From Cetorhinus maximus (lineage: Eukaryota), in the NCBI RefSeq assembly GCF_964194155.1, contig NC_135886.1, positions 5,146,001-5,210,000 on the forward strand: a stretch of 64,000 bases of DNA, written 5' to 3'. The notes under the pieces were generated by a model. The model saw only the letters and a program-made list of their open reading frames with translations, did no database searches and was not told where the DNA came from. The position numbers and the translations under genes are program-made. The stretch's first letter is position 1. Each line of letters begins with the position of its first letter. This document shows positions 6,686-55,076 of the stretch, one piece after another.

Positions 6686-6877
6686 TTACTTTTTGAATAC
6701 AACTGTGGAATACTCTGTAGGTTCTGCAGCAGGAGGCTCAGTAACTGGCGGTTTGATTGCTTCCTGACTGTTGGAAGGTTTCACATTGTTGTAAGTAGCG
6801 GAGTCCTCCTGAGGGTGATTAATGGGCTGAATTGTCACAGTGGCATAAGTAACTCCTCCTTCCAACTCTCTGGACAA
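6686..6877 (-). CDS. Gene A exon 6: cytoplasmic tail with ITIM/ITSM motifs, stop codon
   Basis: Acceptor ttctttatcttcag|TTG, phase 0; LSRELEGGVTYATVTIQPINHPQEDSATYNNVKPSNSQEAIKPPVTEPPAAEPTEYSTVVFKK*. VTYATV fits the ITIM consensus, TEYSTV the ITSM consensus. Confidence 0.9.
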   Translation of the reverse strand: MSRELEGGVTYATVTIQPINHPQEDSATYNNVKPSNSQEAIKPPVTEPPAAEPTEYSTVVFKK

Positions 6878-7744
6878 CTGAAGATAAAGAATACAAGGAC
6901 GTGATTGAGGGAATGAAGCAATGAGTCCATCCATCATTAAAATACAAAAGTGAAAATTTGGGCAATCCTTCATTTTAGAAAATAAATGCACTGTGAAACT
7001 CTAAAATAAATAGGTAGTGAAATCAATATTACATGCAACTGCTTGAGTTAATCAGTAACTTTGTTTTTGGAAAGAATTTTAACCATTTCAGCACCACTGT
7101 CACGATCATAGAAAAGTATATTGGCAGATCCTTTTGCACAATTTGATGTATAAGACTTAATCAGTGATTGATCTGGTTGCTTGTATTGCAGGGTCATGTA
7201 TCTTAGCTTCAAAACAATTCTCCAACCAACAAAAAGCTAGGCCCCAAAATCCTGATTGGGCCTTGGATGTATTCTTCTGCAACAGACAGAGACCAGAAAG
7301 ATGGGGAGGAATTGCACAGCTGAAAATTTTCCCAACATGGAGGATTGCAAAGAGGGTGAGTTTTCTATTGTCCCTCCTGCTACCCACCGCCCAACCCCCC
7401 ATTCCACCCCCAGACCTCTCAGTGTCAAGAGGGCATGTTGGCAGGGAGCTATTTCCATTATTTCCTCAGGGGGACATAAGTTTCACCAGCTGGAAGATGT
7501 TGTGAGTGCTCCTGAGGCCCTGTGAAAAGGCCTGAAAACACTTGCAGCCTAAGACAACCGATTAATGCAAGGGGCCCAGAGCCCCCATGGGCTACAATTT
7601 TCAAATGTGCTTTTTGCAGGCATGGATGGCCTGCTGTGAATATACAGCAAACTCCATGCCTTGGATTGGTTCTGCGTTCTAGGCTTTCCTCTATCATAGG
7701 AACAGGAGTAGGCCATCTAGGTCCTTGATCCTGATCCACCATTT

Positions 7745-8095
7745 TTTAAAAATTCATTCATGTGATGTCAGAATGCCAGAATTTATTTACATGACCCTAA
7801 TTGTCCTTGGAAAGCCTTCTTGATCTGCTATCCGTTCGCTTTTTTTTTTACAGACTGGTTTGGTACAAGTGAGTTGCTTGCTAGGCTATTTCAGCGGAGA
7901 TATAAGAGCTAGCCACATTGCTGGGGATCTGGAGTCAGACTGGGTTAAGAATGGCATGTATGCTTTCCCAAATGACATTCATGAACCAAATGAACAGTCT
8001 GGTAGTCTCAAGTCACTGATCCTAGCTTTTGATTCAAGTTTATTTAATGAACTGAATTTAAATTCCTCGCCTGCCATGGTGGGATTTGAACTCAT
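7745..8095 (-). mobile_element. tRNA-derived SINE, interrupted near its B-box by a MITE
   Basis: Reverse-complement similarity to the SINE at 62321-62702 (gggatttgaactcat, gaatttaaattcc, ggatctggagtca). Confidence 0.65.
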
Positions 8096-8790
8096 GGGCT
8101 GGATTTTAGGGAGTGCCATGATCCCTGGCCACCTCTCCCCACCACCACAACACCTGGTTAAAATGTCAGGGAACAGCCTGCCCAGGTGAAGAAAGGTTGT
8201 CCTGCAGCCACTTAACAGCTGATAGGCCGGTAATTGGCTCGAGATGGGACTGCTGCCCTACAGGGAGAGGAAGTTCCACCTCAGACAGCGGCCATCCAAT
8301 CAGAGCCAGGCAGGTCTCCAATACCGGCAGCGCCAACATAAGTGGTGGCCACTGCCAGTACTGCACTTGAGGAGGTGAACTGCACTGTATTGTGTTGTAA
8401 GTGTTTTGAGGGTCTTGCTGGGTTCCAAGCTGGCAGGCTGCAACACGGGGAGTGGGAGTTGGAATTTGAGAGACCATGGGGAGGAGGGGACCCTGTTGGG
8501 GGGGTGGGCCCCTCTGATGGGCCCCGGGATCATTAAGAAGAGACCCTGTCCCCCTGCCTGCCTGGCGGGGTTGTCACTTGCCATGGGCCTCTCCCGCTGC
8601 CAGTTTAATTCAGCGGGATGAGGTCTTTAGTGAGCGTTAATTGCTCACTTCAGGGTCTCAGTTAGCCCATTGATGACTGGCCATCCAATGCCACCCCTGC
8701 TGCTGGTAAAATTGTGGTGTAGGGCTGGAATTTGCACTCTCCCTGCCTTCAAACCTGCCATAGGGACATGGAGAGTGTAAAATCCAGCGC
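8096..8790. mobile_element. PIF/Harbinger-type MITE
   Basis: TIRs gggctggatttta / taaaatccagcgc; 3-bp TSD cat on both sides. Confidence 0.8.
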
Positions 8791-9122
8791 CATGGTTTTA
8801 GATCAGTAAATGAAATCTTGTTGAAATGTGACCTATTTTCATGTACTCAACTTTGCCCTAAATCCCTTAATACAATTGGTGATCATTTCAGATTTAATAT
8901 TAACCATCAATTTAGCATTAACTGCTATTTGCAGAGGCGATTTCCAAATTTCTTCCACTCTTTGCGTGTAGAAGTGTTTCCTAACTTCGTTTATGAAAGT
9001 CCTGGTTAAAAGGAAGTTCAGATGAATACGCGAAACATGTATGTCCATCATACCAACTTCACAGGCTAGGAGATTCCACAAGTATGAAACCACCTAGTAT
9101 TGTCAACAGGTTATAGCCTTAC

Positions 9123-9178
9123 CACAGAGTTTGACTTTGGAATGGAATTTTCTATTTTTGATTCCTTCTCTCTGTTGT
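9123..9178 (-). CDS. Gene A exon 5: membrane-proximal cytoplasmic exon
   Basis: tttggatttttcag|AC...GTG|gtaagg; 56 nt, phase 1 to 0, bridging exons 4 and 6 in frame; DNREKESKIENSIPKSNSV. Confidence 0.8.
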
Positions 9179-10161
9179 CTGAAAAATCCAAACATAAAGG
9201 TAGTGAGCAAAGCAGCAGGAAGATTCAAAATGTGTCAGTTTTTGTGTGGTGTTAAATGCTGAGTTTTTAAAAATTAAATTGCACTCTTTGATATTCCCTA
9301 TTCAACAGTAGATGAAATATGGGGATAAATGAGAGTGTTGAGGTAATATACTTCCTGAGTAGTTGAAAACTTCAGTTAAAACCTTGTCTCACAATTAATT
9401 ACATAAGGAGGCATTAACATCAGACATGGGTTTAGATTCGATGCATATTGTTAGGTAAAATGCTTCCAGTCTGTGTCAGGCAGTTGCATTAAATCTCATA
9501 ATATATTCTGATATTGCTTCTCTACTCAATTGCCTTTCATTAACTGCAAACTGAATATAATTAATTTAATGTTTAGCGATTTGTGAAGTTGTTTTTTTTT
9601 TCTGTTTGTATTAATGAATTGATCACTTATAACATTTCTCTTGGATGAAATCAAAGGGAAAAAAAACCTTAGCCTTCCAGTAGCTATATCTCAGCTTGTC
9701 CCCCATTTCCCCCCCACAACGACAGGTTTAACACTTTTCACACGGGAAGATAAGTTTCCTGTTATAGAAACTGACCAATTTTCATCTCCATTGGAATGAA
9801 TGGAAATTAAAAGTAGATGGTTTTTAGAATGGGTGACAAATCTTCATCACTGGTTATATGCCCAGGTGGCCAGTTGAACATGTCTTTCCCGGCCCTTGTT
9901 TAAAGTTGTGTGTGTGCGCGGCTGTGGAAGATACTGTACAGGCCGTGTTCTGTGTTAACAAAGCAAAATAACTTAAAGGTACTGTGCAGTGAAAAAAATT
10001 GGCCATGCCCAATAACAACAACATTTTACAGGAACATTGTCCACAGTCTACATTCTTCCTGTTCCTTCTCTGCCATTTTGTTTGCCTTCCACTCATTGAA
10101 ACTCCTACCTATCTCCTTGAGGCTCTCGCTCACTTTCACTCCTGGCTGTCTCTATCTCTTT

Positions 10162-10816
10162 GGCCAGAATTTTACGCCCCCGTGGGTGACCTGAACGGAC
10201 GTGAAATAGAGCAAGATGACGTCGGGTGAGTGTCCCGGTGTCACCTCTCACTCGCGCGATATTTCGCTCAGTGGGTGCACGCGGCAGTGGGCAATTAAGC
10301 CCATCAACGATGAAATCAACAGCGATTTTACGTGACCCGTCCACATTTATGGTCGGCTTCTCCCAGGCGGCGTTCACATTTTTGCTCAAACCTCGATCCA
10401 GGGCAGGATGAAATCTCCGTGGGGAAATGAAATAAAAAGAGATAATCTGGGTACTGGTTTTTTATGAGGTATGCTTTCAGGTGCTTGATTGTGCTGCGCG
10501 GACTTATTTTTGTAGCATTTTTTTGTCGTATCCTTTAGTCTGTGGTGGTCTGCAGCGTCTTGGGGCAGCTCGCTTGCCTTCAGAGGGCTGTCTCGAAGCG
10601 CTCACCCGCGGCCTTGGTTACATTGGCACCCGCCCTCTTCCTGTCCTCACCCTGGCAGCGCTGAGCATTTCAGTGCACATGTCACGCTGGCTGGCCGTTA
10701 ATTGGCCAGCCCGTGTGAAATCGCGGTTGGGAGCCGATTGCAGCCAAAAGCGCCCATTTCCTGTCTGCTCCTGGGCCCGCCGATCGCGTGTGCCTGACAC
10801 CCGAAAAATTCCCGCC
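10162..10816. mobile_element. PIF/Harbinger-type MITE (same family as 36399-37048 and 61009-61704, opposite orientation)
   Basis: TIRs ggccagaatttt / aaaattcccgcc; TSD ttt; shared internal motif gaaatcgcggt / accgcgatttc. Confidence 0.8.
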
Positions 10817-10990
10817 TTTGTTTTTTTTCTCCCTCTCTGTTAGAAAAATGGATGTTCCCTTACACGCAAATCTCAGTGGCCTTGCTGTGATTCACTGTGA
10901 ATAACAATAAATAAGAGCGTTGCTGCAAAGGTTTCGCAAACAAACACGCTTGCCTGTCTGCAAACATTACATACCCTCATTCAATAATAA

Positions 10991-11128
10991 TAAAAACAAA
11001 AAACTACTGCGGATGCTGGAAATCCAAAACAAAAACAGAATTACCTGGAAAAACTCAGCAGGTCTGGCAGCATCAGTGGAGAAGAAAAGAGTCGACGTTT
11101 CGAGTCCTCACGACCCTTCAACAGAACT
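10991..11128 (-). mobile_element. Penelope-like element pseudo-LTR fragment with minimal hammerhead motif
   Basis: Near-identical to 14208-14421; flanked by duplicated (ct)cattcaata; minus strand reads agtt-CTGTTGA-stem II-GAAA-cgTC-gact. Confidence 0.75.
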
Positions 11129-11968
11129 CATTCAATACTTGGATATTTCCCCCGCAGAATTAGAGTGGGGAACTGGTCATTCAACTGAACCATTGGAGAG
11201 ATTTTACATTAATTTCATGTGTATCCATCCAGAAATCCAGCAAAAACTGACACGATATCATCTATAAGAGTCCCCCAAAAAGCTGACAGGCAAAAATATG
11301 GATTTTATGGCATTCTCGTAACTTAAGTTGCAGGCTTCACTTTTATTGTAGGCCTAAACTACTCCCAGTTTCATCCAGGCATAGCACAATGCTGACTTAT
11401 GGCAAGGCTGCCATGAAATGTAAAACAGTTGTAACCTTCTCACAACCACTTATTACAAGGTCACCTTAATATTGGTAACCATAGAATAAGAAATCAGGTG
11501 AGGATTGATCTATCACTTATCTGCAGTTGTATTGGGTCACCTATTCTCACATTTATGCCTGTCTTATTTCAATCCTCTCCTGCTGTTGGTTTGATAAATG
11601 CTGTCAACCAATTAAGATGCATTTTTTTTTTAGCCTTTCCAATGGTTGGAAGGATATCTGACATACTAAACTGTGACTTCCTTTAACTGACTACATCCCT
11701 TTGAATTCTATGCTGCACCCATCCTAATCTTCACCTGGATCTGTAAGTCATTCAGCTCAAAAGGCTGAGTTGTAGAGATTGAGTGTCATCAAGAGATTAC
11801 GATCTGGTGAGATTTGCACTAGTGAACTAGCTTGTATTAACAATATGGGAATTGGCCCCTTTACCTGGTCATTTGTTTCACTTGGAGTTTGCAGGACCTT
11901 GCTGAGCATCCTGTCCTATTTAACAATAATGATGGCACTTAAGAAGTAGCCACTTGGTAGTACAGAAC

Positions 11969-12146
11969 TTGAGTATTGCTAAAAACGTTCTGTCAAAGAG
12001 ACATTTTTGTCTTGCACCCATCAGGACAGGTTCACAAGAGCATAAATTGTTATCCCCTTTGAGATTTGGCATTCTTGTGAATCTGTCCTGATGAGTGCAA
12101 GATGAAAAGCTTTGACAGCATGTCTTTTTCTTTCAGCCATACTCAA
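11969..12146. mobile_element. Palindromic Penelope-like pLTR pair (second family) with hammerhead core
   Basis: Imperfect inverted repeat ttgagtattgct...agccatactcaa; plus arm ctgtc-CTGATGA-gtgcaagat-GAAA-agcttt-gacag at 12083-12118. Confidence 0.65.
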
Positions 12147-12969
12147 AAAAAATAGTTCATTGAGTGTGAAGTATCTCAGGGTATCAGGGTACAGAGAACA
12201 CTGTATAAACAGAATCTCTTTTTGTTTTCTGTATGTCTTTGGATTTGAGAAATATCTGCCTGATTCAATTATTCTAAAGGAATCTAACTCTGAATAGTAT
12301 TAACAAGTCGGTAAATTACTAGCAATTCTGCATGTGATGATCCATCGGCTAATTTAATACTGGTAGTTCTATTTACAAAGGGATCATTTGATATTTGACA
12401 GCTCATTCATATATCTTGCTTTCGATATTTGTTTGAGAAATTATAATTGTTTCACTTCTTTATCCAGTACCAAACTGGAGCATGGTCTTGTTTCTCCGCA
12501 CACAAAAGATAGAGAAAATACAGACAAGTGGTCCTTTTAATTAAGAAATAAAATCACCTTTGTGTTGCTAAAACGACTCCCAAGCATTTTAAAATTATCA
12601 GCAAGAAACAATACACATTGCTATGTGCCACATACAAATTGCCACAATGTTACTGGCAATCCTGTCACTATTATATTGTGCTGAATGGACACTGCAACAG
12701 AGTTCCTATTCTTCCAAGGAGATAAAGGAAGTACCGTCACTGTTGGCTCACTACTGAACTTGGTGCCAGGTTGAAATGAAAATACAAGGAGATTCCTGCC
12801 CTGGCAGAAGGATACAAACTCTTGAAATGCAGATGTAGGTAGGAGCTCAACTTGCACAATCTGTTAAAGGTCGCCCCACATCACGTGGTTGGTTTTTTTT
12901 TTGTTTAACTCGCTCGAAAGATGGATTTATTTTGCTGCGTGGGAAAATTGGTTTCATTTCAGAACTTAC

Positions 12970-13070
12970 CCCTATATTTGTGCTTCCTTATTTTGTTGAT
13001 GACTAGGATCACAAGTGCAAGAAGCATCACCATCAAAATTCCAAAGATTAGTCCAAGCGTCAGGAAAAGT
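12970..13070 (-). CDS. Gene A exon 4: uncharged transmembrane segment plus basic stop-transfer residues
   Basis: ctttcattaaccaccaag|A...AGGG|gtaagt; 101 nt, phase 2 to 1; RLFLTLGLIFGILMVMLLALVILVINKIRKHKYR. Confidence 0.9.
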
Positions 13071-13477
13071 CTTGGTGGTTAATGAAAGACAGTGAAAAAT
13101 TACATGAGTATTGGGACAAATGTAATCAGCCACACGTGGGCCAGGACATGCAAACATGCACAATAATGCAACATATTTCAAAATCTGTTGAATCTTCCAG
13201 GTGATAACATAGGACAACTGTTGCCTCTTCCCACCATCAATTCTTACCCCTCTTCTGTCTCCAATTTTTAACATTCTTACTATGTCGCATTTCTTTCTAA
13301 TCCATTATGGAATTAAATTCGTGCAGGGCTATTCCCCCCTCTCAGCAAGACCTAGAGAAATAGCACAACCCATTTAAAAAAAACATTGATTTTCTTTTTC
13401 ACTTACCTGCCTTTCTGAGCCTTTCTGACAACACGATCGGCAGTAGTAAATGCTTAATACAATTTGACATCCGTAAG

Positions 13478-13735
13478 AACAACAATTTGCATTTATATAG
13501 CAATGTAGTAAAATGTTCCATGGCTTTTCACAGGAGTATTATCAGACAAAATTTGACACTGACCCACATAAAGAGGTATCAGGACAGGCATCAACAGCTT
13601 AGTCAAAGAGAAAAGTTTAACAGAGTAACTTAAAGAAGGAGAATAGTAGAGATGTGAGAAGGTTTAGGGAAGAAATTCCAGAATTTAGGGCCCAGGCAGC
13701 TGAAGGTGTGGCAGCCAATGGTGGAGTGAAATAAA
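13478..13735 (-). mobile_element. L2-like LINE 3' end
   Basis: Tail aacaatttgcatttatatagc; reverse-complement similarity to 15130-15497 and direct similarity to 61910-62275. Confidence 0.65.
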
Positions 13736-14063
13736 TCTGAATTCTCGGCACAGTTTAGATCATGAAGGTTAATGTTACAGTAACAAAATTAATTCTGACA
13801 CTGACTGCAAGAGAATCATTTATTTCACCATCACAGTGTGAAAATCCTAAGGATTAAACGATCATAAAATAAAATAAAACTGTATGCACAAAGTTGAAAC
13901 ACCCCAGCATGCAAATGGCTAAAATTTAGAAAACACTGCATAACAAATAATGCAAAATATGCTTTTCTAACATGTTAGAAAAGGCTAAACTTTCCAATGT
14001 TTTCCACCACTGGCGGTTGAGGTGGGGGGGGGGGGTGGTGGTTTGCATCACATCATGTTCATG

Positions 14064-14181
14064 GGGCGGAATTTTACACCAGTGGAATTTTACAGTCCCA
14101 TCGAAGTCAACGGAGTTTAGAATGGCTCGCTGCATCTTATGGCACCATCCCTGCCACTATGGACCAGTGAAATTCCAGCCC
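14064..14181. mobile_element. Small Harbinger-type MITE
   Basis: TIRs gggcggaattt / aaattccagccc; TSD atg. Confidence 0.7.
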
Positions 14182-14207
14182 ATGTCTGCTGTAAACTAAT
14201 TGTTGGA

Positions 14208-14421
14208 AACAAAAACAGAAACAGAAATACCTGGAAAAACTCAGCAGGTCTGACAGCATCGGCGGAGAAGAGCAAAGTTGACGTTTCGAGTCCTCATGAC
14301 CCTTCAACAGAACGTCAACTGTGTTCTTCTCCGCCGATGCTGCCAGACCTGCTGAGTTTTTCCAGGTATTTCTGTTTCTGTTTTTGTTTTGGATTTCCAG
14401 CATCCGCAGTTTTTTGTTTTT
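14208..14421. mobile_element. Young Penelope-like pLTR inverted pair (hairpin) with minimal hammerhead motif
   Basis: Two nearly perfectly complementary arms; exact 14-bp TSD aactaattgttgga (14194-14207 and 14422-14435); minus-strand gtt-CTGTTGA...GAAA-cgTC-aac at 14276-14313. Confidence 0.85.
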
Positions 14422-15129
14422 AACTAATTGTTGGAGATTGATTATGATTAACCAACAATTCCATTATCATTATATTGTGGGCTGGCCAGGGTGGTGGAAG
14501 ACTAACTAGGTGGGTCTCGCTCTCCCTTTTTTCTAGTAATTCCTATGTTCCTAAACTCAGCCCCCCCCCAGGCCACATTATATCACTTGCAGACCATGAA
14601 AACTGAGTGTGTATTGACTGCATAGTCTTTAACTGACTCTGATAAGTGTCAAGTAAGCCCCAATACTGTCTTTCTTTTGTATCCATAAAACAATCAAGAG
14701 CTTATTACTTTGTCACTTAACCATTGGGCAAACAGAGGAGCAATGAATCCCAGTCTGACTTGCACTGGGTCACCCCTGAGCCTTGTAGAGGATAGCACTC
14801 ATTGCATAAATGTTGAATCACACTGGAACCCAGGGGAATGCATTTCAGTCAACACACATCATCACAAAATTGTCTTACCACTGCAAACAGTGATGATCTG
14901 CTGTTAAGTAGGGTAATGGTGAATATTACAAGTGGTTTTAGGTGAGGATGTTTAGCTATTGTAGCTCTAGAATGTGGTTGATGTGCATAATACTGCACCC
15001 AAAGTATGGTATGAAAGCTACATTTCCCTAAAGCTTATAATTAAACATGTAGCAAAAAATAACTTAACAATTACACTTTTAAAAAATTCACTTCTTTCAC
15101 TTCAAGTTTTTTTCTGGTTTCTTTTTAAA

Positions 15130-15497
15130 TTCTCATCCTTGTCTTCAAATCTCTCCGTGACCTCATGCCTCCATATCTCAGTAACCTCCTCAAGCCCCAT
15201 AACCTCCCGAGATACCTGCATTCCTAAGAATCTGGCCTCTGAGCATCCCTCATCTTAATTGCTCCACCACTGGTGAGGCCATGTCTTTGGTTGCCTGGGA
15301 ATTCCCTCCCGTCAGCTCCCTGCCTCTCTACCTCTCTTTCCTTCTTTAAGATGCTTCTTAAAACCTACCCCTTTTGGTCATCAGCCCTAATATCTGCTTA
15401 TGTCAAAGCCAAATTTTTCTTGATAAAGCCCCTGCGAAACACATTGGGATGCTTTACTGAGTTAGAGGTGCTATACAAATGCAAGTTTATGTTGTTG
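15130..15497 (+). mobile_element. L2-like LINE 3' end
   Basis: ggaattccctccc...ctctacctctctttccttctttaagatgcttcttaaaaccta...gtgctatacaaatgcaagtt tail. Confidence 0.65.
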
Positions 15498-15984
15498 CAG
15501 TGGCATTCATTTGAGATGCTCATAATAGGTGAAATCACATTGCAGATCACTCCTATTTCTTGAGTTTTTACCAGTGACGGGGATAATTTTACAAATTCAT
15601 GCTCATGGCAAGGAACATTGCTTATAGGGTGCACATTTCTGACCAATCATTTTAATTTCCAATGCACTCAGGACTCCTCACTGATACCACAGACCTTTAA
15701 GGATCCAGCTGTACAGTTGACTGATGGCTAAAAATTGGCAAAATTGACTTGGCACACATATAATTATAACGATACCTACACCAGAATTGAAAACAAAACA
15801 AAAAGAAATCAATCTTACATATTTACTGAGGCATTATTGCTGTACATAAACTAATACAATGTACAGGACTGTGAGGTTGTATGTTAGAAAAATGTTTTTT
15901 CATTTATGAGTCTGTCCTTGAATCCAACTCAAACTAATTGAAATATGATCTCTTCTCCTTGTATACTATCAACCATAAATACTA

Positions 15985-16600
15985 TCAACATCCTGGGGGT
16001 TATGATTTGTCAGAAACTGAACTGGACCAGTCATGTAAATACTGTGGCTACAAGAGCAGGTCAGAGGCTGGAAACTCTGAAGTGAGTAACTCGCCTCCTG
16101 ACTCCCCAAAGCCTGTCCACCATTTGCAAGGCACAAACCTACAACGCTCGAGAAACTTGATACATCCTGGATAAGGCAGCTTGCTCGATTGGCACCCCAT
16201 ACACCACCTTAAACATTCAGTCCCTCCACCATTGACACACGGTAGCAGCAGTGTGTGCCATTTACAAGATGCACTGCAGCAATTCACCAAGGCTCCTTTG
16301 ACAGCACCTTCTAACCATGTGACCTCTACCACCTAGAGGGACAGGGACAGCTGATACATGGGAATGTCACCACCCGCAAGTTCCCCTTCAAGCCACATTC
16401 CATCCTGATTTGGAACTATATCACCATTCCATCATTGTTGATGGGTTGGAACCCTAAAGCTCCCTTCCCAACAGCACTATGGGTGTACCTACACCACATG
16501 GACTGGAGTAGCTCACCACCACCTTCTCAAGGGTAATTAGGAATGAGCAACAAATGCCCTGCTTCCCAGCAATGACCACATCCCTTGAAAGGATACATTT
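15985..16600 (+). mobile_element. LINE 3' end (CR1/L2 group), degraded RT C-terminus and 3' UTR
   Basis: Translates to QKLNWTSHVNTVATRAGQRL; 3' tail matches 4082-4392 and the SINE tails. Confidence 0.7.
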
Positions 16601-17094
16601 AAAACAATACTCGAAGGGTTTGAGTTTGATTAGCCTTAGCCTAGTGCACAACACCCGTTTTTCAGCACTTGTTGACAATTCGTTGGCAGTTAGGCCAACC
16701 AAGGGGTTGCTGGATGCAAATGGAATTGGTGAAGGAGGAAGTTGCCTTCGGAGTCTAAGGGGTGAATTTCTTCAGCGCTGTTGCTTCATCAGGAAAATTG
16801 TTCATGCACGAGAACAAGAGTTTTCCATTGAACCTCTGCCGAAGTTGCACTAGTGGAATGGGGGAAACACCCAGGAAATTCAAGAACAATTTAAGCTGGT
16901 GTTGATGCTGAAAGGGCCATTCATTCTACATCATTGACATTCCTCATCTAGGGGAAACGTCTACCTAAACTTCACCAGAACAACAAAAGCACAATCTCGC
17001 ATATGGCAATCGGACATTTCTCATTATTACACTAGTGCAGATATACGTAAAAAAATGCTCAGAGTATACCAGTTCAAATGCATTTGTCATTTAC

Positions 17095-17131
17095 CTTAGT
17101 AATCCCTTGTCCTTAGTAAGTGACTTTGGAG
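17095..17131 (-). CDS. Gene A exon 3: short stalk exon
   Basis: ttttgaacag|CT...CTAAG|gtaaatga; 37 nt, phase 1 to 2; APKSLTKDKGLL; homologous to gene B exon 3. Confidence 0.85.
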
Positions 17132-17443
17132 CTGTTCAAAATGATGTACAAAAATATTATTTGATAATTTACTAGCCTCATGTTACAGATTCATTATCAA
17201 GATACATTTGCAGTGATTGCTGATTGAAATTCTGCATTTGATAGAATGATCAAAACATAGCACATGGTTTTACAATATTGTCTTACCTTTTAAACAAAAT
17301 TTTAACACCTGACAGAGAAATCAGGATCTTGGAGATTTTGCAAAATATTTACCAAGGTCTGCATCAAATTATATAAACCTATTGTATAATATAAATATAT
17401 CATTAAATATATACACACAGATAAACATATATTTGTGTCCTAC

Positions 17444-17779
17444 CTTGAACAACGTTAAGTTTTATGGGACTTAGTAGATCCAGATTGTGGTGTCTTGCTA
17501 TTCCACACCAGTACCACCCCTTATCGTTTTCTGTTATTCGCTCCATATATACTATAAGTTCTCCTTTTGTATTATCAGCTCTCACTTTTATTCTGCCGTC
17601 TTGGCTTTTCCTTTCAGAGCCTTGGGTTTGCACTAAAACATTACAGCTCCTCTGGTAGTAGCCTTTGCACCAATACTTCTGATAATCGCGATAAGATGTG
17701 TCGAAATCGCATTTGAGTTCGACTGATTCTCCCACTGTGGCATCTTTTGAGTTTGGCCCAGTTATTGAAGCGTGCGTAA
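17444..17779 (-). CDS. Gene A exon 2: V-set Ig domain, CD300/pIgR (CMRF35-like) family
   Basis: cacacttacag|TT...CAAG|gtagga; 336 nt, phase 1-1. B-strand Cys, YxKYWCKG followed by a second Cys (extra C-C' disulphide typical of CD300/pIgR/TREM), DGRI, DxGWYWCGI. Confidence 0.95.
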
Positions 17780-18627
17780 CTGTAAGTGTGAAAATATAAT
17801 AAACTTTAAAGTTAAACATTTCAGAGAAGCATAAATAAATTAAAATTTGTTCCTTTCTCTCTTAAGTGTTCAACTCATTTGTTTTTCCTGGGACCTTTGG
17901 CTCTTTGTTGGCTTTCCACTCCGTTATTCTCTCTGGCTGGCTCCCTCATTGTTTTGTCAGCAGCTGTCTGTTTTTTATTCACTAACTCACCCTTTGGCTT
18001 CAGTATTGCCCCTCGTATCTATGTGCTTGTTAGCAGTTTACCAAGTTTTGTTTCTTTCACATGTTTAATGGCAAAGGCACAGCAAGAAACTTAAATGTGC
18101 TGGGTTGGCGAAGGGGATTTGGATCAGACATTGGTGGGGAGAGGGCTACTGGGAGATTCCAAATTGCACATGGATTTCAAAGAAGCTGTGGGTAGGGGCC
18201 TCGTTGGAACATCTGGGGGTAGAGTTTGTCCTGGGATCCAAAATCGCATTCTGGACCAATTGAAGTTGTAATGGGTCTAGAGTTCAAAATATGCCCAAAA
18301 CTCTTGCAACTGGTGCAACATATATGCATGAGACTGAAACAGGTGGCGTAAATTTCAGTAGGAGTGAGAGGCTAGATAGTAGAGCAGTGAACCCATATTT
18401 TTCGAGAATGGGACAAGGTATGGGGAAAGTGGCAAGAGATTAGAGTTTGCCCCTGGGGCTAAAAGTGGAAAGCTCATGATAGTGAGAGTTATTGTGTTAG
18501 AGGAATGCTGCAAGGGCATTGAGTGTATGGTTAGGTACATGATCGACTCTTAGTGCGAGTGCTAAAATGAGGCACCAGCTGATTTCCTTGATCCTGCTGT
18601 TTCTCCAGTTTAATTTTGAAAAGCACT

Positions 18628-20039: not shown

Positions 20040-21963
20040 GAAACATAGAAACATAGAAAATAGGAGCAGGAGTAGGCCACTCGGCCCTTTGAGCTTGCTC
20101 TGCCATTCAATATGATCATGGCTGATCCTCCATCTCAACGCCATACTCCCGCTCTCTCCCCATACCACTTGATGCCTTTAGAGTCCAGAAATCTATCTAT
20201 TTCCTTCTTAACTATATTCGGTGACCAGCCTCTGTGGTGGAGAATTTCATAGGTTCACCACCCTCTGAGTGAAGAGGTTTCTCCTCATCTCAGTCCTAAA
20301 TGGTCTACCCCATATCCTGAGATTGTGACCCCTTGTCCTAGACACCACCCCCCCGCCAGAGGAATTATCATCCCTGCGTCCAGTCTGTCCATCCCTGACA
20401 GAATTTTATGTGTTTCAATGAAATCTCCTCTCATCCTTCTAAATTCCAGTGAATATAGGCCTAGTCGGCCCAATCTCTCCTCATATGACAATCCTGCCAT
20501 CCCAGGAACCAGTCTAGTGAACCTTTGCTGTACTCCCTCTATGGCAAGTATATCCCTTCTTAGGTAAGGAGACCAAAACTGCACACAATACTCTAGGTGT
20601 GGTCTCACCAAGACCCTACACAGCTGCAGGAGGACATCCTCGCTCCCTTATTCAAGTCTTCTCACAGTGAAGGCCAATATACTATTTGCCTTCTTAACTG
20701 TTTGCTGAACCTGCATGCTTGCTTTCAGTGATTGATGTACAAGGACACCCAGGACCCTTTGTACATCAACATTTCCCAATCTATCACCATTTAAATAATA
20801 CTCTGCCATTCTGTTTTTCCTACCAAAGTGGATGATTTCACACTTATCCACGGTATACTGCATCTGCCATGTATTTGCCCACTCACTCAACCTGTCTAAA
20901 TCACCTTGAAGCCTCTTAACACACTCATCAGTCACATTCCCATCAAGTTTTGTGTTGTCAGCAAACTTGGAAATATTTCATTTGGTTCCCTCATCCAAAT
21001 CATTGATATATATTGTGAATAGCTGGGGCCCAAGCACTGATCCCTGCAGTACCCCACTAGTCACTGCCTGCCACTCCAAAAAAGACCCATTTATTCCAAC
21101 TACCTGTTTCCTGTCTGCTAACCAATTCTCAATCCACGCCAATATATTACCCACAATCCAATGTGTTTTAATTTTACACACTAACCTCTTATGTGGAACT
21201 TTATCAAAAGCTTTCTGAAAATCCAAGTACGCCACATCCATTGGTTCTCCCTTGTCTATTCTGCTAGCCATGTCCTCAAAAAACTCCTGTAGGTTTGTCA
21301 AACACGATTTCCCTTTTATAAATCTATGTTGACTTTGTCTAATCCTGTTGATATTTTGTAAGTGTCCTGTTATCACATCCTTTATAATAGACTCTAGCAT
21401 TTTTCCTACAACTGATGCTATGCTAACTGATCTGTAATTCCCTGTTTGCTCCCTCCCTTCCTTTTAAATAGAGGGGTTACAATTGTTATCCTCCAATCTA
21501 TCGGGACTATTCCAGAATCTACAGAATTTTGGAAGATGACAACCAACCCAAGCACTATTTCCAAGGCCACCTCCTCTGGGATGTAGATTATCGGGCCCTG
21601 GGGATTTATCGGCTTTCAGTCCCATTAATTTCTCCAGCACTATTGTTTTAGTAATACTAATTTCCTTCAATTCCTCCTTCTCACTAGACCCTTGGTTCCC
21701 TAGTATTTCTTGGAAGTTATTTATGTTCCTCCATGAAGACAGGACTAAAGTAGTTGCTTCATTGTTCTGCCATTTCCTTGTTCTCTATTATAAATTCTCC
21801 AGATATGGACTGCAAGGAACCTACATTTGTATTCACTAATCTTTTTCTCTTTACATACTTATCGCTTTTATGTTCTTTGCAAGTTCACTCTCATACTCTA
21901 TTTTTCCCCTCTTAATCAGTCTCTTGGTCCTTCTTTGCCGAATTCTAAACCACTCCCAATCCT
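20040..21963 (-). mobile_element. CR1 LINE, 5'-truncated, frameshifted RT
   Basis: ORFs with [44 protein letters not shown]; 3' tail (aaacatag)2. Confidence 0.95.
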
Positions 21964-24613: not shown

Positions 24614-24653
24614 CTGATAGGAAAGCAACGGACAGGAGAAGGGTAAAACCCAT
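24614..24653 (-). CDS. Gene A exon 1: signal peptide of inhibitory CD300/pIgR-like receptor
   Basis: ATG MGFTLLLSVAFLS+G|gtaaga; 40 nt, phase 1, same length as the gene B leader; joins exon 2 as VTHASITGP. Confidence 0.85.
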
Positions 24654-26340: not shown

Positions 26341-26586
26341 ATGTCCACGAAAAGCAAAAAGACTGCAGCCCCCAGATTCAGTGACACGTCACTGGTATGC
26401 CTTTTGGGTGCCGTGGAGGCCGCTGTGATGTCCTCTACCCACACTCTGGCTGGCTGCAGGATGGGCAGTGGCGTGACCAACCAGGCTTGGGAGGCAGTGG
26501 CAGTGGTGGTCAGCGCCAGTGACCTTCAAAAGAGGACAGCCACCCAGTGCTGCAAGAGGATGATTGATCTCCTCCGTTCCGCCAGG
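26341..26586 (+). pseudogene. Harbinger Myb/SANT-like DNA-binding protein, exon 1 (frameshifted)
   Basis: APRFSDTSL..LLGAVE...AWEAVAVVVSA...RTATQCCKRMIDL, donor AGG|gtgagt. Confidence 0.8.
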
Positions 26587-26711
26587 GTGAGTCATTACTC
26601 TCAACTCACACACTCACAAACCCATCACACATCCATAGGGCTCTCACTCGTCATTGATTAAAGGGATATCACCATTCACTCTCTCTCCCACACCTTCATT
26701 GTCCTCATCCC

Positions 26712-40903: not shown

Positions 40904-42211
40904 GGGACACTGTTTAAAAATAAGGGGTCACTCATTTAAGACAGAGATGAGGATAAGCTTTTTACTCTCGGGGGGTTGAGAGTCTTTGGAACTCTATTCC
41001 TCAAAAGGTGGTGGAAGCAGAGCCTTTGAATATTTTTAAGGCAGAGCTGGATAGATTCTTGATTAACAAGGGGGTGACTTGTTGTCGGGGGTAGGCAGGA
41101 ATGTGGGGTTGAGGTTACATTCAGATCAGCCATGATCTTATTGAATCGCAGAGCAGGCTTGAGGGGCCGAATGGCCTACTCCTGCTCCTAATTCATATGC
41201 TCGTATGCACATTCCATTTTTCACACTCATACATCTCTTCAGTTTCCTCCTTGCAGGAGAAGACAGCACAGAACCCCAGGGAGAGACAGAAAACCGGAGG
41301 TGACCCTCCGGCCATCTGCATACTGACAGCTTCAGATAAGGAATCACTGGAGATAAGCTGATCCTCAGTGTGCCTTACCCTCAGGGATGGAGATTCAGGG
41401 GCCTCCAGATGCCGGGAGGTAGAATTAACCATCACACAGCCACATGACATACAAATCTCACTTATTGACTTTATGTTAGTAGCCACTCAAATATGCTAAT
41501 ATACACATTGATGATTTATCACTTTATTTGACAGCTCTAATTCATGTCTTAAATCATCTCCCAGAGGACTTTGAAGCATCCTGTAGGAGGTGGTGCAGGA
41601 AGAGGAAGGAGAACCCTCAGAGGTAGCCACTCACTCTGGGGATGCACCGTCACAGGACCATGCACACTGCCCACTAGCACTGTGAAAGCACACTTTCAGA
41701 ACAGGCCTGTGAGTAAAAGGCATTCAACTGGGCAAGGAAACAGGTGTGAGATCTCAGTATTTAAAGGATTTCCAGCCTGTCACTTGTTCCGTCCCCTCAA
41801 ATTCCGCTGCCCTCTTACTTTGGTATCCTTGGCAAGTTTTGTGAAACATGTGCGCACACAGTTAAATTCAGAAATCCCAGTTAAAGCAGCTGAAAATGAG
41901 GTCTTTGGGTATTAAAATTGCCACTCTACTGCCCCATGGTAGAGTTTGCCACACACAGCAAAACGAGCTGAAGTTAAAGGTGGAAGTTTGGGGGTTGTCC
42001 CCATTTTCTTGATGCATCGCCAGTATTGCCCCTTTTAACCAGCTGCACCAAACCCACTCACATTTTTTCCCAAGTTGAAACTCTCCCCATTGTGTTTTGG
42101 GGTATGTTTAAATGTATGTTTTGTAGTAATCATTCTGCTCTGGTAAAATGTTAATGCACTTAATATTCTGAATATAAAGTACAGCACAAGTACAGCAAAT
42201 ATACAGTACAA

Positions 42212-43812
42212 CACCAACTTGGGCAGCGAATTCCAGACACCCACTACCCGCTGCGTAAAAAAGTTCTTCCTCATGTCCCCCCTACACCTTCTGCCACTTA
42301 TCTTGAATCTATGTCCCCTGGTTCTAGAATTCTCCATCAAGGGAAACAATTTTATCCTGTCCACTCTATCTATTTCCCTCATAATTTTGTATACCTCAAT
42401 CAAGTCACCTCTCAGCCTTCTTTGTTCTAAGGAAAATAACCCCAACCTATGCAATCTCTCCTTGTAGCTACACTTTTTTAACCCTGGCAACATTCTTGTA
42501 AACCTCCTCTGCACTCTCTCCAGAGCTATTACGTCCTTCCTGTAATGTGGTGACCAGAACTGCACACAATACTCCAGTTGTGGCCTCACCAGTGTTTTAT
42601 ACAATTCCAACATTATATCTTTACTTTTATATTCTATACCTCTGCCAGTGAAGGAGAGCATTCCATATGCCTTCTTTACAACCTTGTCTACTTGAACTGC
42701 TGCCTTCAGGGACCTGTGTACTTGTACACCAAGATCTCTCACTTCATCTACCCCTCTTAGTGTATTCCCATTTATTGTGTAATCCCTGTAACTGTTTGAC
42801 CTCCCTAAATGTATGACATCACACTTCTCTATGTTAAAATCCATCTGCCACTTTACCGCCCACTCCACCAACCAATCTATATCGTTTTGGAGATTATGGC
42901 TATCCTCTACACTATCCACTACTCCGCCAATCTTTGTGTCATCTGCAAATTTCCCAATCATGCCCTCCACGTTCATGTCCAAATCATTAATATATAACAC
43001 AAACAGCAAGGGTCCCAACACCAAGCCCTGTGGAACACCACTTGAGACAACTTTCCATTCGCAAGGGCATCCATCGACCATTACCCTTTGTTTCCTGTTA
43101 CAAAGTGAACCTTTTATCCAGTTTGCCACATTACCCTGAATCCCATGAGCTTTTACTTTCCTGACCAATCTGCCATGTGGGACCTTGTCAAATGCCTTGC
43201 TAAAATCCATGTACACAACATCCACTGCACTACCTTCATCAACCCTTCTTGTCACTTCCTCAAAGAATTCAATCAAATTTGTGAGGCAAGACCTTCCTTT
43301 AACAAATCCATGCTGACCATCCCTGAATAGTCCATGCCTTTCCACATGACAGTTAATCCTATCTCTCAGGATTGATTCTACTAATTTGCTCACCATTGAT
43401 GTAAGACTAACTGGCCTATAATTGTTTGGCATTTCCTTTGATCCCTTTTTAAACTACGTTTTCATTTCTCCAGTCCTCCGGTACCTCCCCTATATCTAGT
43501 GAAGATTGGAAAATCATCCTCAGAGCATCTGCTATCTCCTCCCTGACTTCCTTCAGCAGTCTCGGAAACAATCCATCTGGCCCTGGTGACTTATCCACTT
43601 TCAAGGATTTCAGCCCTTCGAGTACTTCCTTTCTCTTTATGACTATCCCGTCCAATATCTCGCAGTGTTCCTCCTGGATTACTATACCTACATCCTCCCT
43701 TTCCTTTGTAAATACGGAGACAAAATATTCATTCAAAACCCTTCCCACAGCCTCTGCATCTACACACAAGTTTCCATCTTCATCTCTGATAGGTCCCACT
43801 TTTTCCTTAACA
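42212..43812 (-). mobile_element. Relatively young CR1 LINE segment with long open RT frame, truncated at both ends
   Basis: About 400 uninterrupted RT codons ([43 protein letters not shown]); one frameshift near 43440; no 3' UTR or tail. Confidence 0.95.
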
Positions 43813-44032
43813 TTTTCCTTTTAGCATTAATGTCAATAAAAAGTCCCCTCAAAAAATGATCTCAATATAAGACAAAATGAGTGCACGTTTACTTCAGAAA
43901 CATTTTGTTATGGTTCTGCTATCCTTTCTGAAATATAAGGAGCAGATTATAAAGAATTCCTCCAAATGTTTTGTGCTTAAACTTAAATGCACAGAAATGA
44001 TTCAAATCAACAACTTACCAGTTTTTAATCAC

Positions 44033-44132
44033 CTATATTTTCAGTTTGACAAAAATGGCCCAAACGAGGAGAATGATGAAGAATGCCCAACGTAAGATGC
44101 TCCATATAAAATAGTACAGATATTTATTTTGC
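44033..44132 (-). CDS. Gene B exon 4: transmembrane segment with Arg, minimal tail, stop codon
   Basis: ctacctacctag|G, phase 2; RQNKYLYYFIWSILRWAFFIILLVWAIFVKLKI*; donor CTG|gtaagt 14 nt after the stop (exon ends 44019). Not shown in the ORF track. Confidence 0.88.
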
Positions 44133-45932: not shown

Positions 45933-45994
45933 GTCGTAATCTACAAAAGAAAACAAAAAGCCCTGGAAATTCTTTCAGATTCAATTTGATGATT

Positions 45995-50440: not shown

Positions 50441-51310
50441 ATGATTGTGTAGAGACAGAATAATTGTTCAGAATAGACCAGTTTAAATAGGCATGACATT
50501 TACCTTAGGATTTCCTCATCTGATGGAGAGATTGAAAGAAGTGCTTTGGGACCTGTAAGAAATTATATAAATAATTGTTATTAAATTATACTGCCAAATT
50601 GTGTTACACATCAGTCTAAGTCAACAGAGATAAATTTCTTCAAATTTGTGATGAAAAAAAGTGGAAAGTTTCATGAGCAGAATTAGTACTGAAATTATAT
50701 ATTTTGGTCTGAATTTAATGCTCTCCTGCATTTTGGTTTGAAGGAGGGGATGGCATTTTAAATGCAGTGGGTGGCGTGCATGCTGCCTACCTGACTGTTG
50801 TGTTGTTATAATGATATAGGCACCAATCACTCATAAGGGATTGTGTAAAAACGTTGTTGGTTCATTTACTGAGAACAGGCAGATGAGAATATTTATACAA
50901 AGGAAGAAAGCTTGAAGACATCAGAGCTGTGCTGCCTTTTGATCACAGGCAGTGATGTCATGCTGCTATCCCTTAAAGGCATATTACACCAATTCCCACT
51001 CCTGCCCCCATTGCAATTTTACCAATGGTGGGGATAGTGTCAGTGCCTGTGGGTCAACTGAGTCCCTTTAGTGGGAATTTAATGTCCACTTAGGGTCTCA
51101 TCCTGCCCTCACTGGGATTTAACCAGTGGCAGGGAAGAGGCCCATACCAAGCGCATGGCCTGGCGTTGGGCAGGGACAGCCCTCATTAACAGGCCCTCTG
51201 GGCCCATCATAGGGTCCTCCCCCGCTACCCCAGGTCCCCCACCCTCCCATGGCTTGTGGCCTCTCATACCCTCGCATTCCCCCCCCCCCAAAGCCCCCTT
51301 GCGGGAACCT
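49977..51310. repeat. Inverted repeat pair, arms 49977-50380 and 50942-51310, bracketing gene B exon 3
   Basis: For example ccattggtaaaattgcaatgggggcaggagtgggaattg versus caattcccactcctgcccccattgcaattttaccaatgg. Confidence 0.9.
50504..50552 (-). CDS. Gene B exon 3: short stalk exon
   Basis: tttcttacag|GT...CTAAG|gtaaatgt; 49 nt, phase 1 to 2; GPKALLSISPSDEEIL. Confidence 0.85.
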
Positions 51311-51681: not shown

Positions 51682-52014
51682 CTTCAGTGATTTTAAGTGC
51701 TACAGGGCTTAACAGGTCCCAGAAAAGCCTTTCAATTCCACACCAGTACAAGCCTTCATCATCCTGCGTTAAGTGTTCCATTGTGACTGTAAACTCCCCT
51801 GCTTCAGTATCAGCTGCAATGGTGATTCTGCCATCAGAATTTGCCTTGTTCGGGCTGTGGGTTTGCACAAGAATAGCACAGGATTCCTGGGTGTTGCCTT
51901 TGCACCAGTACTTTCGATAATTGCTGTAGTATTTGTCATATGTACATGTGACATGGATTGATTGTCCGACTAATGCATTGATAACATCTGGTCCATTTAA
52001 TGCAGCGTACGTAA
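51682..52014 (-). CDS. Gene B exon 2: V-set Ig domain, CD300/pIgR (CMRF35-like) family
   Basis: cacactgaacag|TT...GAAG|gtagga; 333 nt, phase 1-1, open; VTYAALNGPDVINALVGQSIHVTCTYDKYYSNYRKYWCKGNTQESCAILVQT...DEGLYWCGIERLFWDLLSPVALKITE. Confidence 0.95.
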
Positions 52015-53334: not shown

Positions 53335-53711
53335 TTAAGTGGGGAGATTATTCACGCAGAGAGGTTGCATTCATTGGAATTTAGAAGGTTAAGGGATGAT
53401 TTTATTGGAATTTTCAAGATGTTAAGGGGATTAGATAGGGTAGGTAGAGAGCAACTATTTCCATGGTTGGCAGTCTATAGGGGAGATAGTTTCAAAACTA
53501 GAGCCTGCCCTTCCAAGAGTGAAATGAGGGAAACTCCTCCTGTACACCTACACACAATTTGGAACTCTCTTGCGCAATGGAAGTTGATATCTGGTCATTA
53601 CTAATTTTAGGTCTGAGTTTGATAGATTTTTATCAACCAAAGCTATTCGCGGAAATAGGCCAAAGGCAGGCGTATGAAGTTAGGTCATAGGTCAGCCATG
53701 ATCTCATTGAA
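53335..53711 (+). mobile_element. Old CR1 3' fragment
   Basis: LHSLEFRRLRDDFIGIFKMLRGLDRV. Confidence 0.8.
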
Positions 53712-53780
53712 ATGAAAACAGAAAGTGCTGGGAAGACTCAGCAGGTCCGCAGCATCCACGGGGAGAGAAACGAGGCTAAT

Positions 53781-53887
53781 GGGCGGAATTTTCCAGCCCC
53801 TCCCGCCGGTGGGGGTCTCCCGCCGAAGTCAACGGGCATTTGATTGGCTCGCCCCATCCCTCACGGCTGGGCTGGGAAACCCTGGCC
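53781..53887. mobile_element. Small Harbinger-type MITE inserted in a Penelope-like pLTR
   Basis: Ends gggcggaattttcc / ggaaaccctggcc; TSD aat; host is gaaaacagaaagtgctgggaagactcagcaggtc...gtttca. Confidence 0.7.
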
Positions 53888-54484
53888 AATGTTTCAAGTA
53901 AACATAACCCTTCTCCAGGACACGATACAGAGCACGGTTTCAATATAGAATGCTTCCTGTACTTCCTTTGCAAGACACAGTAAGCACCTCAACTACATCA
54001 TTCGAATGACCAAATTGGGAGAGTAAGTTTACCAATCTCAATGCACACATTTAAATTCGAAGTGTTTGCTAATATTGGAACTGGCTCAAGGGGCCTCCTG
54101 CAGTTCCCATAATATGACACAAACATTGCTGAAAATCGAACATCGCTTCCGCATTTGGAGGAGCATACATGGAACATTAACCTGTAAATGTTAATTGCCA
54201 TTATTACTTTTTTAAAATTGACATCTAGTTTCTTTTGCTCTGGTGCAATAAGGCCGAAGGGCACAATAGTTCAGCGCATGAAGCAGTGGCAAGGAAAAAG
54301 ATGATCAAAAAGATTATGACATGAACGGGTGTTTACCCTCCTGTCACAGTATAGAGAGGCTTTCCTCAGCAGCAGATTGCTGACACATAAATCTGCACGG
54401 ATTCATAAAACGGCTTCAATTATTTGAAACAGATGTTTAAGTAAAACACACAAGGATAGTTTAAGGTGCATTAAAATGAATGGA

Positions 54485-54826
54485 AAAAGAAATCAAGTCT
54501 TGCATCTTTCATGACATCAGAATGCTTAACAGCCAACAAACATGCTGCAAGTACACTCATTGTCGTAGTCAAAGAGGCAAACAATGTGTGTGCAGCAAGA
54601 TCCCACAAATAACAATGAAAGACCAGATGATTTATTTTTATATCATACATCAAGGTAACACCATGAAATCTTTCACATGCACCTGATAGGGGAGATGGGA
54701 TGTCTGAGCCCTGATCACTAAGCTGAAGTGTTATTCTGGTTCACATGCTCAAGTCTCTGGAGTGGGACTTGAACCCACAACCTTCCAGATACCATAACTA
54801 CTGTTCCACCATTGAGCCACAGCTGA
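54485..54826 (-). mobile_element. Deu-domain SINE, degraded
   Basis: cagcaagatcccacaaataacaatg; tgctcaagtctctggagtgggacttgaacccacaacc. Confidence 0.7.
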
Positions 54827-55036
54827 TAGGAATGCTGCAGTGGATTTTCCTGTTCCTATGCCTGGGGGTATTGAATTTCCTATAGGAAAATTGGACAGGG
54901 AGGATTAACAAACTTATAATTAGGCAAATATTCTAGAAGAAAGATCTGCTACTAATTAATGTTTCTATAAAACTTGCACTAATGCACACAATTCTCATTT
55001 CACCATAGAAGCTCCTAAAAATTGTTTGTTTCTTAC

Positions 55037-55076
55037 CTGAGAAGGAGACCATGAAAAGATGAAATGACAAATCCAT
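55037..55076 (-). CDS. Gene B exon 1: signal peptide of activating-type CD300/pIgR-like receptor
   Basis: aaaacATG MDLSFHLFMVSFS+G|gtaaga; 40 nt, phase 1. Confidence 0.82.

Follow-up and report, generated by a model that had tools for sequence, protein, structure and literature searches.

The skate MDIR family was reportedly published in 2006, and the abstract of that study is said to describe MDIR5 as lacking signalling motifs. In the available part of PMC3031540, the MDIRs are presented as multigene families of activating and inhibitory receptors in the skate, a cartilaginous fish, and as CD300/TREM/pIgR-like. Here we report the analysis of a window of 64,000 nucleotides from Cetorhinus maximus (contig C8, 5.15-5.21 Mb), in which an initial annotation had proposed two paired receptor genes, below called A and B, of a family said to be little characterised in cartilaginous fish. 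This last claim is overstated, given the skate MDIRs already described (PMC3031540, same part), whose relatives fill the upstream part of the cluster holding A and B. The interval first proposed ends exactly at the stop codon of gene A (6686) and the ATG of gene B (55076).

On the whole, genes A and B are not a lone pair and are part of a much larger receptor cluster of 550 kb, at whose V-only edge they sit. The cluster has 22 V exons (21 intact and one with stops), 12 C2 exons, seven Arg-type transmembrane (TM) exons and seven tyrosine-motif tails. Among the 22 V exons, 13 match skate MDIR receptors, with 48-64% identity to MDIR2, MDIR3 and MDIR5 of clearnose skate (P0249, P0182 and P0194, respectively). 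The MDIR-type exons span C8:5.25 to 5.61 Mb, upstream of B, the nearest MDIR-type tail exon lying about 45 kb upstream of the gene B ATG. Automatic gene prediction fuses the B orthologue with an MDIR-type gene in whale shark, and the A orthologue with a downstream two-V gene in three sharks; these fusions with cluster neighbours show that the gene order is conserved. In the flanks, over about 150 kb to either side, the Ig protein set matched only LINE sequences; this was an Ig query and not a general gene search. A V match on C37 (E 6e-6) was dropped as weak (28%).

The likeness to the MDIRs lies in the locus itself, with its 13 MDIR-type V and 12 C2 exons, in the WxxxRW TM motif found in both skate MDIR5 and shark B, and in the tyrosine-motif tails of skate MDIR2/3 and shark A. 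However, the V domains of A and B have 34% and 36% identity to MDIR2/3/5 and fall outside the MDIR V clade, and each gene has a single V and, from there to the TM exon, no C2 exon. For both reasons the label 'MDIR', judged from the sequences, fits the locus and TM type and not the orthology of the two genes. As the comparison covered MDIR2/3/5 only, A or B could equal MDIR1 or MDIR4, neither of which is among the 112 matches of the MDIR protein search (lengths 259-825).

Gene A lies on the minus strand and has six exons, with all introns GT..AG and an ORF open for 253 aa. Exon 1 (24614..24653, 40 nt) encodes the leader, the same as in the orthologue P0004, and exon 2 (17444..17779, 336 nt) a V-set Ig domain (Pfam V-set E 1.2e-14) with an extra Cx7C disulfide loop. 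The mini stalk of exon 3 (17095..17131, 37 nt) has both junctions joined in contigs of runs X1, X2 and X6; exon 4 (12970..13070, 101 nt), with an AAG acceptor, carries the uncharged TM segment and is given by the gene model and junction contigs. Exon 5 (9123..9178, 56 nt), the first cytoplasmic exon, has its junctions in X1 and X2 contigs, as has the junction of exon 6 (6686..6877, 192 nt), which encodes the tail with VTYATV (Y201), Y219 and TEYSTV (Y246) and the stop. The initial annotation had proposed to look for spliced reads over its predicted junctions. Our check covered four of the five, the exon 1 junction being outside the stretch compared, and contigs of X1 and X2, from two studies, carry each of these four in joined form and contigs of X6 two of them, with one joint placed up to 3 nt off the modelled boundary. 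These three runs are from related shark species and, like X13, only presumed RNA; none of the four junctions is listed in the same-species run X13, nor is any run recorded as RNA among the listed matches to the V exon of A, and neither result has a bearing on expression. Gene A is thus spliced in related sharks. In addition, the model and a white-shark RefSeq protein agree at 232 of the 253 residues, and the tail has 64-93% identity across seven orthologues with both the VTYATV and TEYSTV motifs kept. The ORF, the introns and the RefSeq match confirm gene A as the complete, phase-consistent minus-strand gene first described.

Gene B, also on the minus strand, has four exons encoding 173 aa, with a TM Arg and almost no tail (four residues). 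The leader exon (55037..55076, 40 nt) equals the start of P0164, and the V-set exon (51682..52014, 333 nt; Pfam V-set E 1.6e-17) is 100% identical to RefSeq CMRF35-like molecule 2. The mini stalk exon (50504..50552, 49 nt) belongs to the gene model and is skipped in RefSeq isoform X2, which is consequently without TM segment. The last exon (44032..44132), defined by the gene model and a motif survey, holds the TM with its WxxxRW Arg motif, the four-residue tail and the stop. RefSeq XP_078402491.1 is the same as our model letter for letter, so that gene B is also complete as claimed; both genes already carry automatic CMRF35-like annotation. The common exon plan proposed for the two genes holds for the first four exons, while A has two extra cytoplasmic exons.

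The CD300 family is the other close system. CD300lf is the best single-domain match of both V domains (72 bits for A and 70 bits for B), and the predicted model of the A domain compares to CD300lf with Z 20.6 and rmsd 0.9 over 107 aligned positions, so sequence and fold bear out the CD300-like V domains of the initial annotation. As listed in the available part of PMC6166816, the Ca2+/phospholipid pocket of mouse CD300lf consists of Tyr34, Cys36-Cys44, Gln41, Arg42, Trp89 and Asp98. Mapped by counting from the conserved Cys and Trp and not by superposition, five of the six pocket residues are in place in A, with the Asp98 equivalent shifted by one, and five of six in B, with Glu at the Arg42 position; this position is thus basic in A and acidic in shark B. 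Like CD300, A and B have a single V with a Cx7C second disulfide followed by TM and tail, appear to keep most lipid-pocket residues, and set an ITIM tail (A) against a charged TM (B), as the inhibitory CD300LF/CD300A are set against CD300C and other activating members. They differ in the very short stalk, in their position outside the CD300 clade, and in the TM Arg of B within WxxxRW, which stands against Glu in CD300C (PMC12447643, available part) and Lys in other CD300 members (P0100). Moreover, there is no sign of gene conversion between A and B, in contrast with that described between CD300A and CD300C in the same text (PMC12447643).

A phylogeny of the V domains, suggested in the initial annotation, recovers A and B as sister clades (support 99/96). 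Sharks and batoids are represented in both, which shows that the duplication behind A and B is old. A+B are not joined in the 62-row tree and have only SH-aLRT 87 in the 114-row tree. In the 62-row tree both lie outside the MDIR2/3/5 V clade (100/98), the tetrapod CD300 clade (98/93) and the pIgR-D1 clade (100/99), and in all three trees, built on about 105 columns, outside the MDIR and CD300 clades. The rows include mammalian pIgR recognised by similarity only, ten outgroup rows without names and no named TREM. The AU test rejects none of the groupings A+B+CD300 (p-AU 0.364), A+B+MDIR (p-AU 0.364) and A+B+pIgR-D1 (p-AU 0.225). By these trees, A and B are a sister lineage of their own in sharks and batoids, outside the three clades.

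As for the pairing, opposite signalling modules on linked genes, the strict mark of paired receptors, are present as first noticed: A has a neutral TM and tyrosine motifs, B a TM Arg without tail. VTYATV fits the classical ITIM consensus as stated in the available part of PMC12447643, and TEYSTV fits the non-classical form only. The V-domain identity, put at about 46% initially, holds at 51 of 111 columns. We consider it somewhat probable that A and B are old elasmobranch sister genes in the V-only end of an MDIR-type cluster, A inhibitory and B adaptor-coupled, with differing preference for lipid-type ligands. Under this reading, A would be an inhibitory receptor of leukocytes, and its tail tyrosines, once phosphorylated, would recruit SHP-1/SHP-2. 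The tailless B would signal through its TM Arg, paired with the Asp in an adaptor of the FcRgamma or CD3zeta type; two adaptor TM exons of the zeta/FcRgamma family are found in the genome. Both V domains would retain most of a cleft like that of CD300lf, and binding of Ca2+/lipid-type head groups is probable for both, with a preference that may differ through the basic (A) or acidic (shark B) residue at the Arg42 position. A and B would then be long-diverged receptors of opposite sign and not a gene-converted same-ligand pair.

We consider it unlikely that the two are instead a genuine inhibitory/activating pair with one ligand in common, in the manner of CD300A/CD300C, and perhaps orthologous to CD300 directly. 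They are adjacent, on the same strand, sister clades and each other's closest cluster paralogue (47% versus at most 42%), CD300lf is their best single-domain match, and the tree with CD300 is not rejected; however, the tree with MDIR does equally well, the ectodomains are neither highly similar nor homogenised (46-47%), unlike CD300A/C (PMC12447643, available part), and each groups with its own orthologues. Other pairs in the cluster are 82-95% identical, closer than A/B, and the Arg42 position is of opposite charge in A and B, both of which make a common ligand for A and B doubtful. By identity, A/B is a weaker candidate for a same-ligand pair than those cluster pairs. In humans, CD300 has NHERF1 and RAB37 as neighbours. 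The initial annotation had pointed to the NHERF1 region for synteny, and this finds no support, both EBP50_C matches (two of two) being on C25 and C15 and the receptor cluster on C8. Of the ancient paired system first envisaged, the old duplication stands.

The coupling of B may be compared with FcRgamma-coupled Arg-TM receptors (LILRA, GPVI, NKp46, FcalphaR, Xenopus XFL TM1), to which it is similar in an Arg in the outer TM half, almost no tail, and TM and tail in one exon, as described for activating Xenopus XFLs (PMC2413239, available part). It differs from them in a V-set and not C2 ectodomain, and in reading SILR and not NxxR, the form given in the same text as the FcRgamma-coupling motif (PMC2413239). 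The Arg and the cytoplasmic basic residue are 14 residues apart in B and about 18 apart in most relatives. Another possibility, quite improbable in our view, is that the Arg of B is placed at the membrane surface, B being a non-signalling or shed decoy buffering A or other cluster members. The RefSeq isoform skipping the stalk, the missing NxxR and MDIR5, which has the same WxxxRW and is reportedly without signalling motifs, speak for it. Against it, WxxxRW is kept in seven cluster exons, many shark, ray and coelacanth proteins and one sturgeon protein, hydrophobic residues flank the Arg of B on both sides, and the TM and tail share one exon as in activating XFLs.

A link of A and B to the origin of pIgR and FcmuR was also proposed initially, and no functional link was found. 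It is very unlikely that they belong to the pIgR/FCAMR/FcmuR line and, as immunoglobulin receptors, bind shark IgM. The V-domain superfamily is common to them, the tree with pIgR-D1 is not rejected, and pIgR chains head the PDB lists by summed score; however, these scores sum several domains, and pIgR D1 taken alone reaches 38 bits with A and 54 bits with B, whereas CD300lf reaches 72 and 70 bits, respectively. The D1 CDR1 loop has a role in Ig binding, and the CDR1 of A and B is two residues shorter and without the SVNRH/TVNKH motif. In the human order, the PIGR/FCAMR region lies between IL10 and C1orf116. These markers are on the same shark contig, at C8:19.12 and 19.86 Mb, 14 Mb away from A and B, so the IL10/PIGR synteny suggested for the window does not hold; between them lies a separate V exon, not A or B, whose gene, at C8:19.28 Mb and without the B-strand cysteine as the assembly reads, is a positional PIGR/FCAMR candidate. 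A multi-domain pIgR assembled from B, A and neighbours was rejected, each gene having its own leader and TM and the single V of A joining directly to stalk and TM. The 577-653 aa 'pIgR-like' database proteins contain a complete A, its tail in mid-protein, fused to the next gene; the mapping shows that each of these three shark entries joins adjacent genes of the cluster, and for PIGR/FCAMR it indicates another gene by position.

Genes A and B are real and add members to a known system, not a new system. The pair alone adds little, because skate MDIRs were already known to have the on/off design and automatic names exist for both genes; the literature search found no paper on A and B, a weak result since subscription journals are poorly covered in it. 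In the available part of a 2014 survey, no PIGR or FcRgamma homologue is reported in sharks (PMC4016189). The Cetorhinus maximus genome has candidates for both, which later work may already report. Inside a fast-changing cluster, A and B are a fixed landmark, one-to-one across sharks and batoids, and this conservation makes them good reagents for CD300-type lipid sensing and FcRgamma coupling in cartilaginous fish. A wider picture is speculative and, as a whole, unlikely: the contig arm may preserve the early arrangement of the CD300/TREM/pIgR superfamily, with the MDIRs and the A/B lineage in one large cluster not far from NFYA and with a single V receptor, flanked by IL10 and C1orf116, as shark PIGR/FCAMR forerunner. 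A would then be a CD300lf-like Ca2+/phospholipid inhibitory receptor predating the shark-ray split, and WxxxRW an FcRgamma-coupling module common to sharks through sturgeon and coelacanth. As a synteny marker, DAD1 was uninformative, with 25 matches over many contigs. TREM2 scores below CD300lf, the trees holding no named TREM. The human TREM neighbours are NFYA and FOXP4; in the shark, NFYA lies 1.8 Mb from the cluster end and a FOXP at 15.5 Mb.

The window contains two V-domain exons, both on the minus strand, and the remainder consists of repeats. With the exons joined by coordinates, gene A (putatively inhibitory) has six exons, with GT..AG at every intron, and encodes 253 aa, and gene B (putatively activating) has four exons and encodes 173 aa; both match Pfam V-set. 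The B model is exactly RefSeq XP_078402491.1, labelled basking shark and named CMRF35-like molecule 2, and the A model shares 232 of 253 positions with white-shark CMRF35-like molecule 1; both genes are already annotated, automatically. On the whole, the initial annotation of two minus-strand V-type genes with opposite modules is right. Between the two V domains, 51 of 111 columns are identical, in keeping with the claimed 46% or so. The TM of A is uncharged, and the A tail carries tyrosines at 170, 201 (VTYATV), 219 and 246 (TEYSTV); the TM of B contains WSILRW, and the protein stops four residues beyond it. The exon plan claimed to be shared holds only in part, given the different exon numbers. 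Both genes are probably functional. Between and within them lie reverse-transcriptase (LINE-type) fragments (window 20288-21784, 35060-35995 and 42038-43820), a DDE_Tnp_4 transposase remnant (26182-29052) and the remains of a disrupted LTR element that match protease and integrase (38019-40433).

Four of 13 listed sequencing runs were aligned to window 6200-17900, spanning four of the five A junctions; they are contigs whose RNA nature is a guess, and the three positive ones (X1, X2, X6) come from related species. In these guessed RNA contigs the predicted junctions are borne out: X1 and X2, from two studies, join all four, and X6 joins the first two; none is joined in X13, likewise contigs of guessed RNA nature. 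One joint is placed up to 3 nt off the model boundary, at a site where the relatives' sequence differs. In one X6 contig the A TM exon continues into the intron, which may represent unspliced RNA; read on the window, this form would have a tail ending within a few residues and without tyrosine motifs. Window 12580-13070, where it lies, is a candidate short form of A. For B, a RefSeq isoform (also called X2) skips the stalk exon (window 50504-50552) and loses the TM, and would be secreted.

As to signalling, A would inhibit via SHP-1/2: its VTYATV matches the classical ITIM described in PMC12447643 and its TEYSTV the non-classical form, and both are conserved as far as skates. The skate A orthologues P0135, P0158 and P0159 have an additional cytoplasmic stretch of about 24 residues, absent from shark A. 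B would require an adaptor for signalling. Two TM exons of the zeta/FcRgamma family, both with the Asp, are present in the genome, at L081:1486-1578 (contig C16) and L082:1486-1578 (contig C356); one is putatively FcRgamma and one CD3zeta. As in FcRgamma-coupled receptors, a single exon of B encodes both TM and tail, but their NxxR, as given in PMC2413239, is missing from B. A 2014 survey (PMC4016189) reported that sharks had no PIGR or FcRgamma homologues.

The proposed CD300-like nature of the V domains is well reflected in the per-domain matches, where CD300lf is the best solved single domain for both A (72 bits) and B (70 bits), compared with 38 and 54 bits for isolated pIgR D1 and 29 and 54 bits for NKp44. 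The AlphaFold model of the A V domain (pLDDT 94.6) aligns with mouse CD300lf over 107 residues (Z 20.6, rmsd 0.9; the predictor knows these structures), and the next fold matches are teleost pIgR (Z 16.9), TREM2 (16.3) and human pIgR (15.9). V-domain trees, each of about 105 columns, were built from 114, 62 and 26 rows, with redundant and long-branch rows left out of the latter two; several outgroup rows are unnamed, and named TREM, FCAMR and FCMR are not among the rows. A groups with shark and skate orthologues, and B with one shark protein and one electric-ray protein. An A+B clade appears in two trees (SH-aLRT 87 with 114 rows; 99/96 with 26 rows) and is not resolved with 62 rows, where the MDIR (skate modular domain immune-type receptor; 100/98), tetrapod CD300 (98/93) and pIgR D1 (100/99) clades exclude A and B. 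AU tests do not reject any of the groupings of A+B with MDIR (0.364), with CD300 (0.364) or with pIgR D1 (0.225).

We counted the pocket positions from the conserved Cys and Trp, with the CD300lf residues given in PMC6166816 as reference. By this counting, A keeps Tyr34, Cys36-Cys44, Gln41, Arg42 and Trp89 and has its Asp one position further on, whereas B has exact Asp spacing and Glu at position 42. This position is basic in all seven A orthologues, Glu also in two shark B orthologues and Ser in two other B-like proteins. Unlike pIgR, neither A nor B has the D1 CDR1 motif. The opposite charge at position 42, together with the old, unconverted divergence of A and B, argues for different ligands.

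The paired design, in a family claimed to be little characterised in cartilaginous fish, is already known from skate MDIRs and CD300; according to PMC3031540, skate and zebrafish have MDIRs as multigene receptors, activating and inhibitory, that are similar to CD300, TREM, FCAR and pIgR. B shares WxxxRW with MDIR5, and MDIR2 and MDIR3 have tyrosine-motif tails as A does, but the V domains of A and B are only 34% and 36% identical to those of MDIR2/3/5. The WxxxRW short-tail TM motif is also found in bony-fish pIgR-like proteins (sturgeon P0044, coelacanth P0105), and MDIR2 residues 90-206 match FCRL5 as well. In a search mostly outside subscription journals, we found no description of the A/B lineage or map of the shark cluster, and the accessible parts of PMC9321927, PMC10768021, PMC10801876 and bioRxiv 2022.04.21.489081 do not mention these genes.

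The window corresponds to C8:5146001-5210000. Examined gap-free over C8:4.906-5.760 Mb, the surrounding cluster has 22 V exons (5.057-5.609 Mb), of which 21 are intact and one is interrupted by stops, 12 C2 exons, seven Arg-type TM exons (B's among them) and seven tyrosine-motif tails (A's among them). Upstream of B, 13 V exons are 48-64% identical to skate MDIR2/3/5, and a ray V-C2 query has these three among its 112 matches. Here, at C8:5245985-5608965 (L018-L054), Arg-TM and tyrosine-tail forms of MDIR-type V-C2 genes alternate. Opposite pairs closer than A/B within the cluster as a whole, assigned by exon order rather than cDNA, are V 5.289 (Arg TM)/5.352 Mb (tyrosine tail) at 95% identity, and V 5.102/5.080 and V 5.320/5.257 Mb, each at 82%. 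The MDIR-type array also has an inverted block (5.514-5.585 Mb), and one of its copies, at 5.608 Mb, contains stops. Downstream of A (C8:5047617-5138562, L005-L014) are a two-V gene, an Arg-TM/ITIM single-V pair (82% identical) and a divergent two-V gene with tyrosine tail. In whale shark, automatic annotation fuses an MDIR-type gene with the B orthologue, and in three sharks it fuses the A orthologue with the two-V gene downstream, showing that the gene order is conserved. Such fused database proteins can mimic a multi-domain pIgR; P0001, P0002, P0003, P0232, P0073 and P0025, shark proteins named pIgR-like or uncharacterised, are fusions of adjoining cluster genes.

For synteny, the human gene neighbourhoods served as reference. 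Both NHERF-type matches are on contigs other than C8, which carries NFYA (7.44 Mb), a FOXP-family match (15.5 Mb), a weak IL10-family match with two internal stops (19.12 Mb) and C1orf116 (19.86 Mb); thus, between the RAB37/NHERF1 and IL10/PIGR alternatives, the cluster lies on a TREM/PIGR-region-related arm and not beside NHERF. Of 21 matches to pIgR D1 of a bird, 20 are within the cluster and one is between IL10 and C1orf116, the position of FCMR/PIGR/FCAMR in human; 80 kb of this 740-kb interval was examined. This lone minus-strand V exon (C8:19280311-19280628, L087:5311-5628) has a candidate leader near 19281814 and a Lys-containing TM exon near 19272370 (L086). It has neither the B-strand cysteine nor the D1 CDR1 motif, scores roughly equally to pIgR D1 (47 bits) and CD300LF (49 bits), and is not settled in the 62-row tree. 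We regard it as a positional candidate for PIGR/FCAMR or a pseudogene, perhaps already covered by Flowers 2021, which deals with how PIGR and FCAMR arose. One more, weak V-domain match off C8 is at C37:2686609-2686878 (L061). In addition, 25 DAD1-family matches are spread over many contigs, many of them full-length in a single frame, suggesting numerous processed DAD1 copies.
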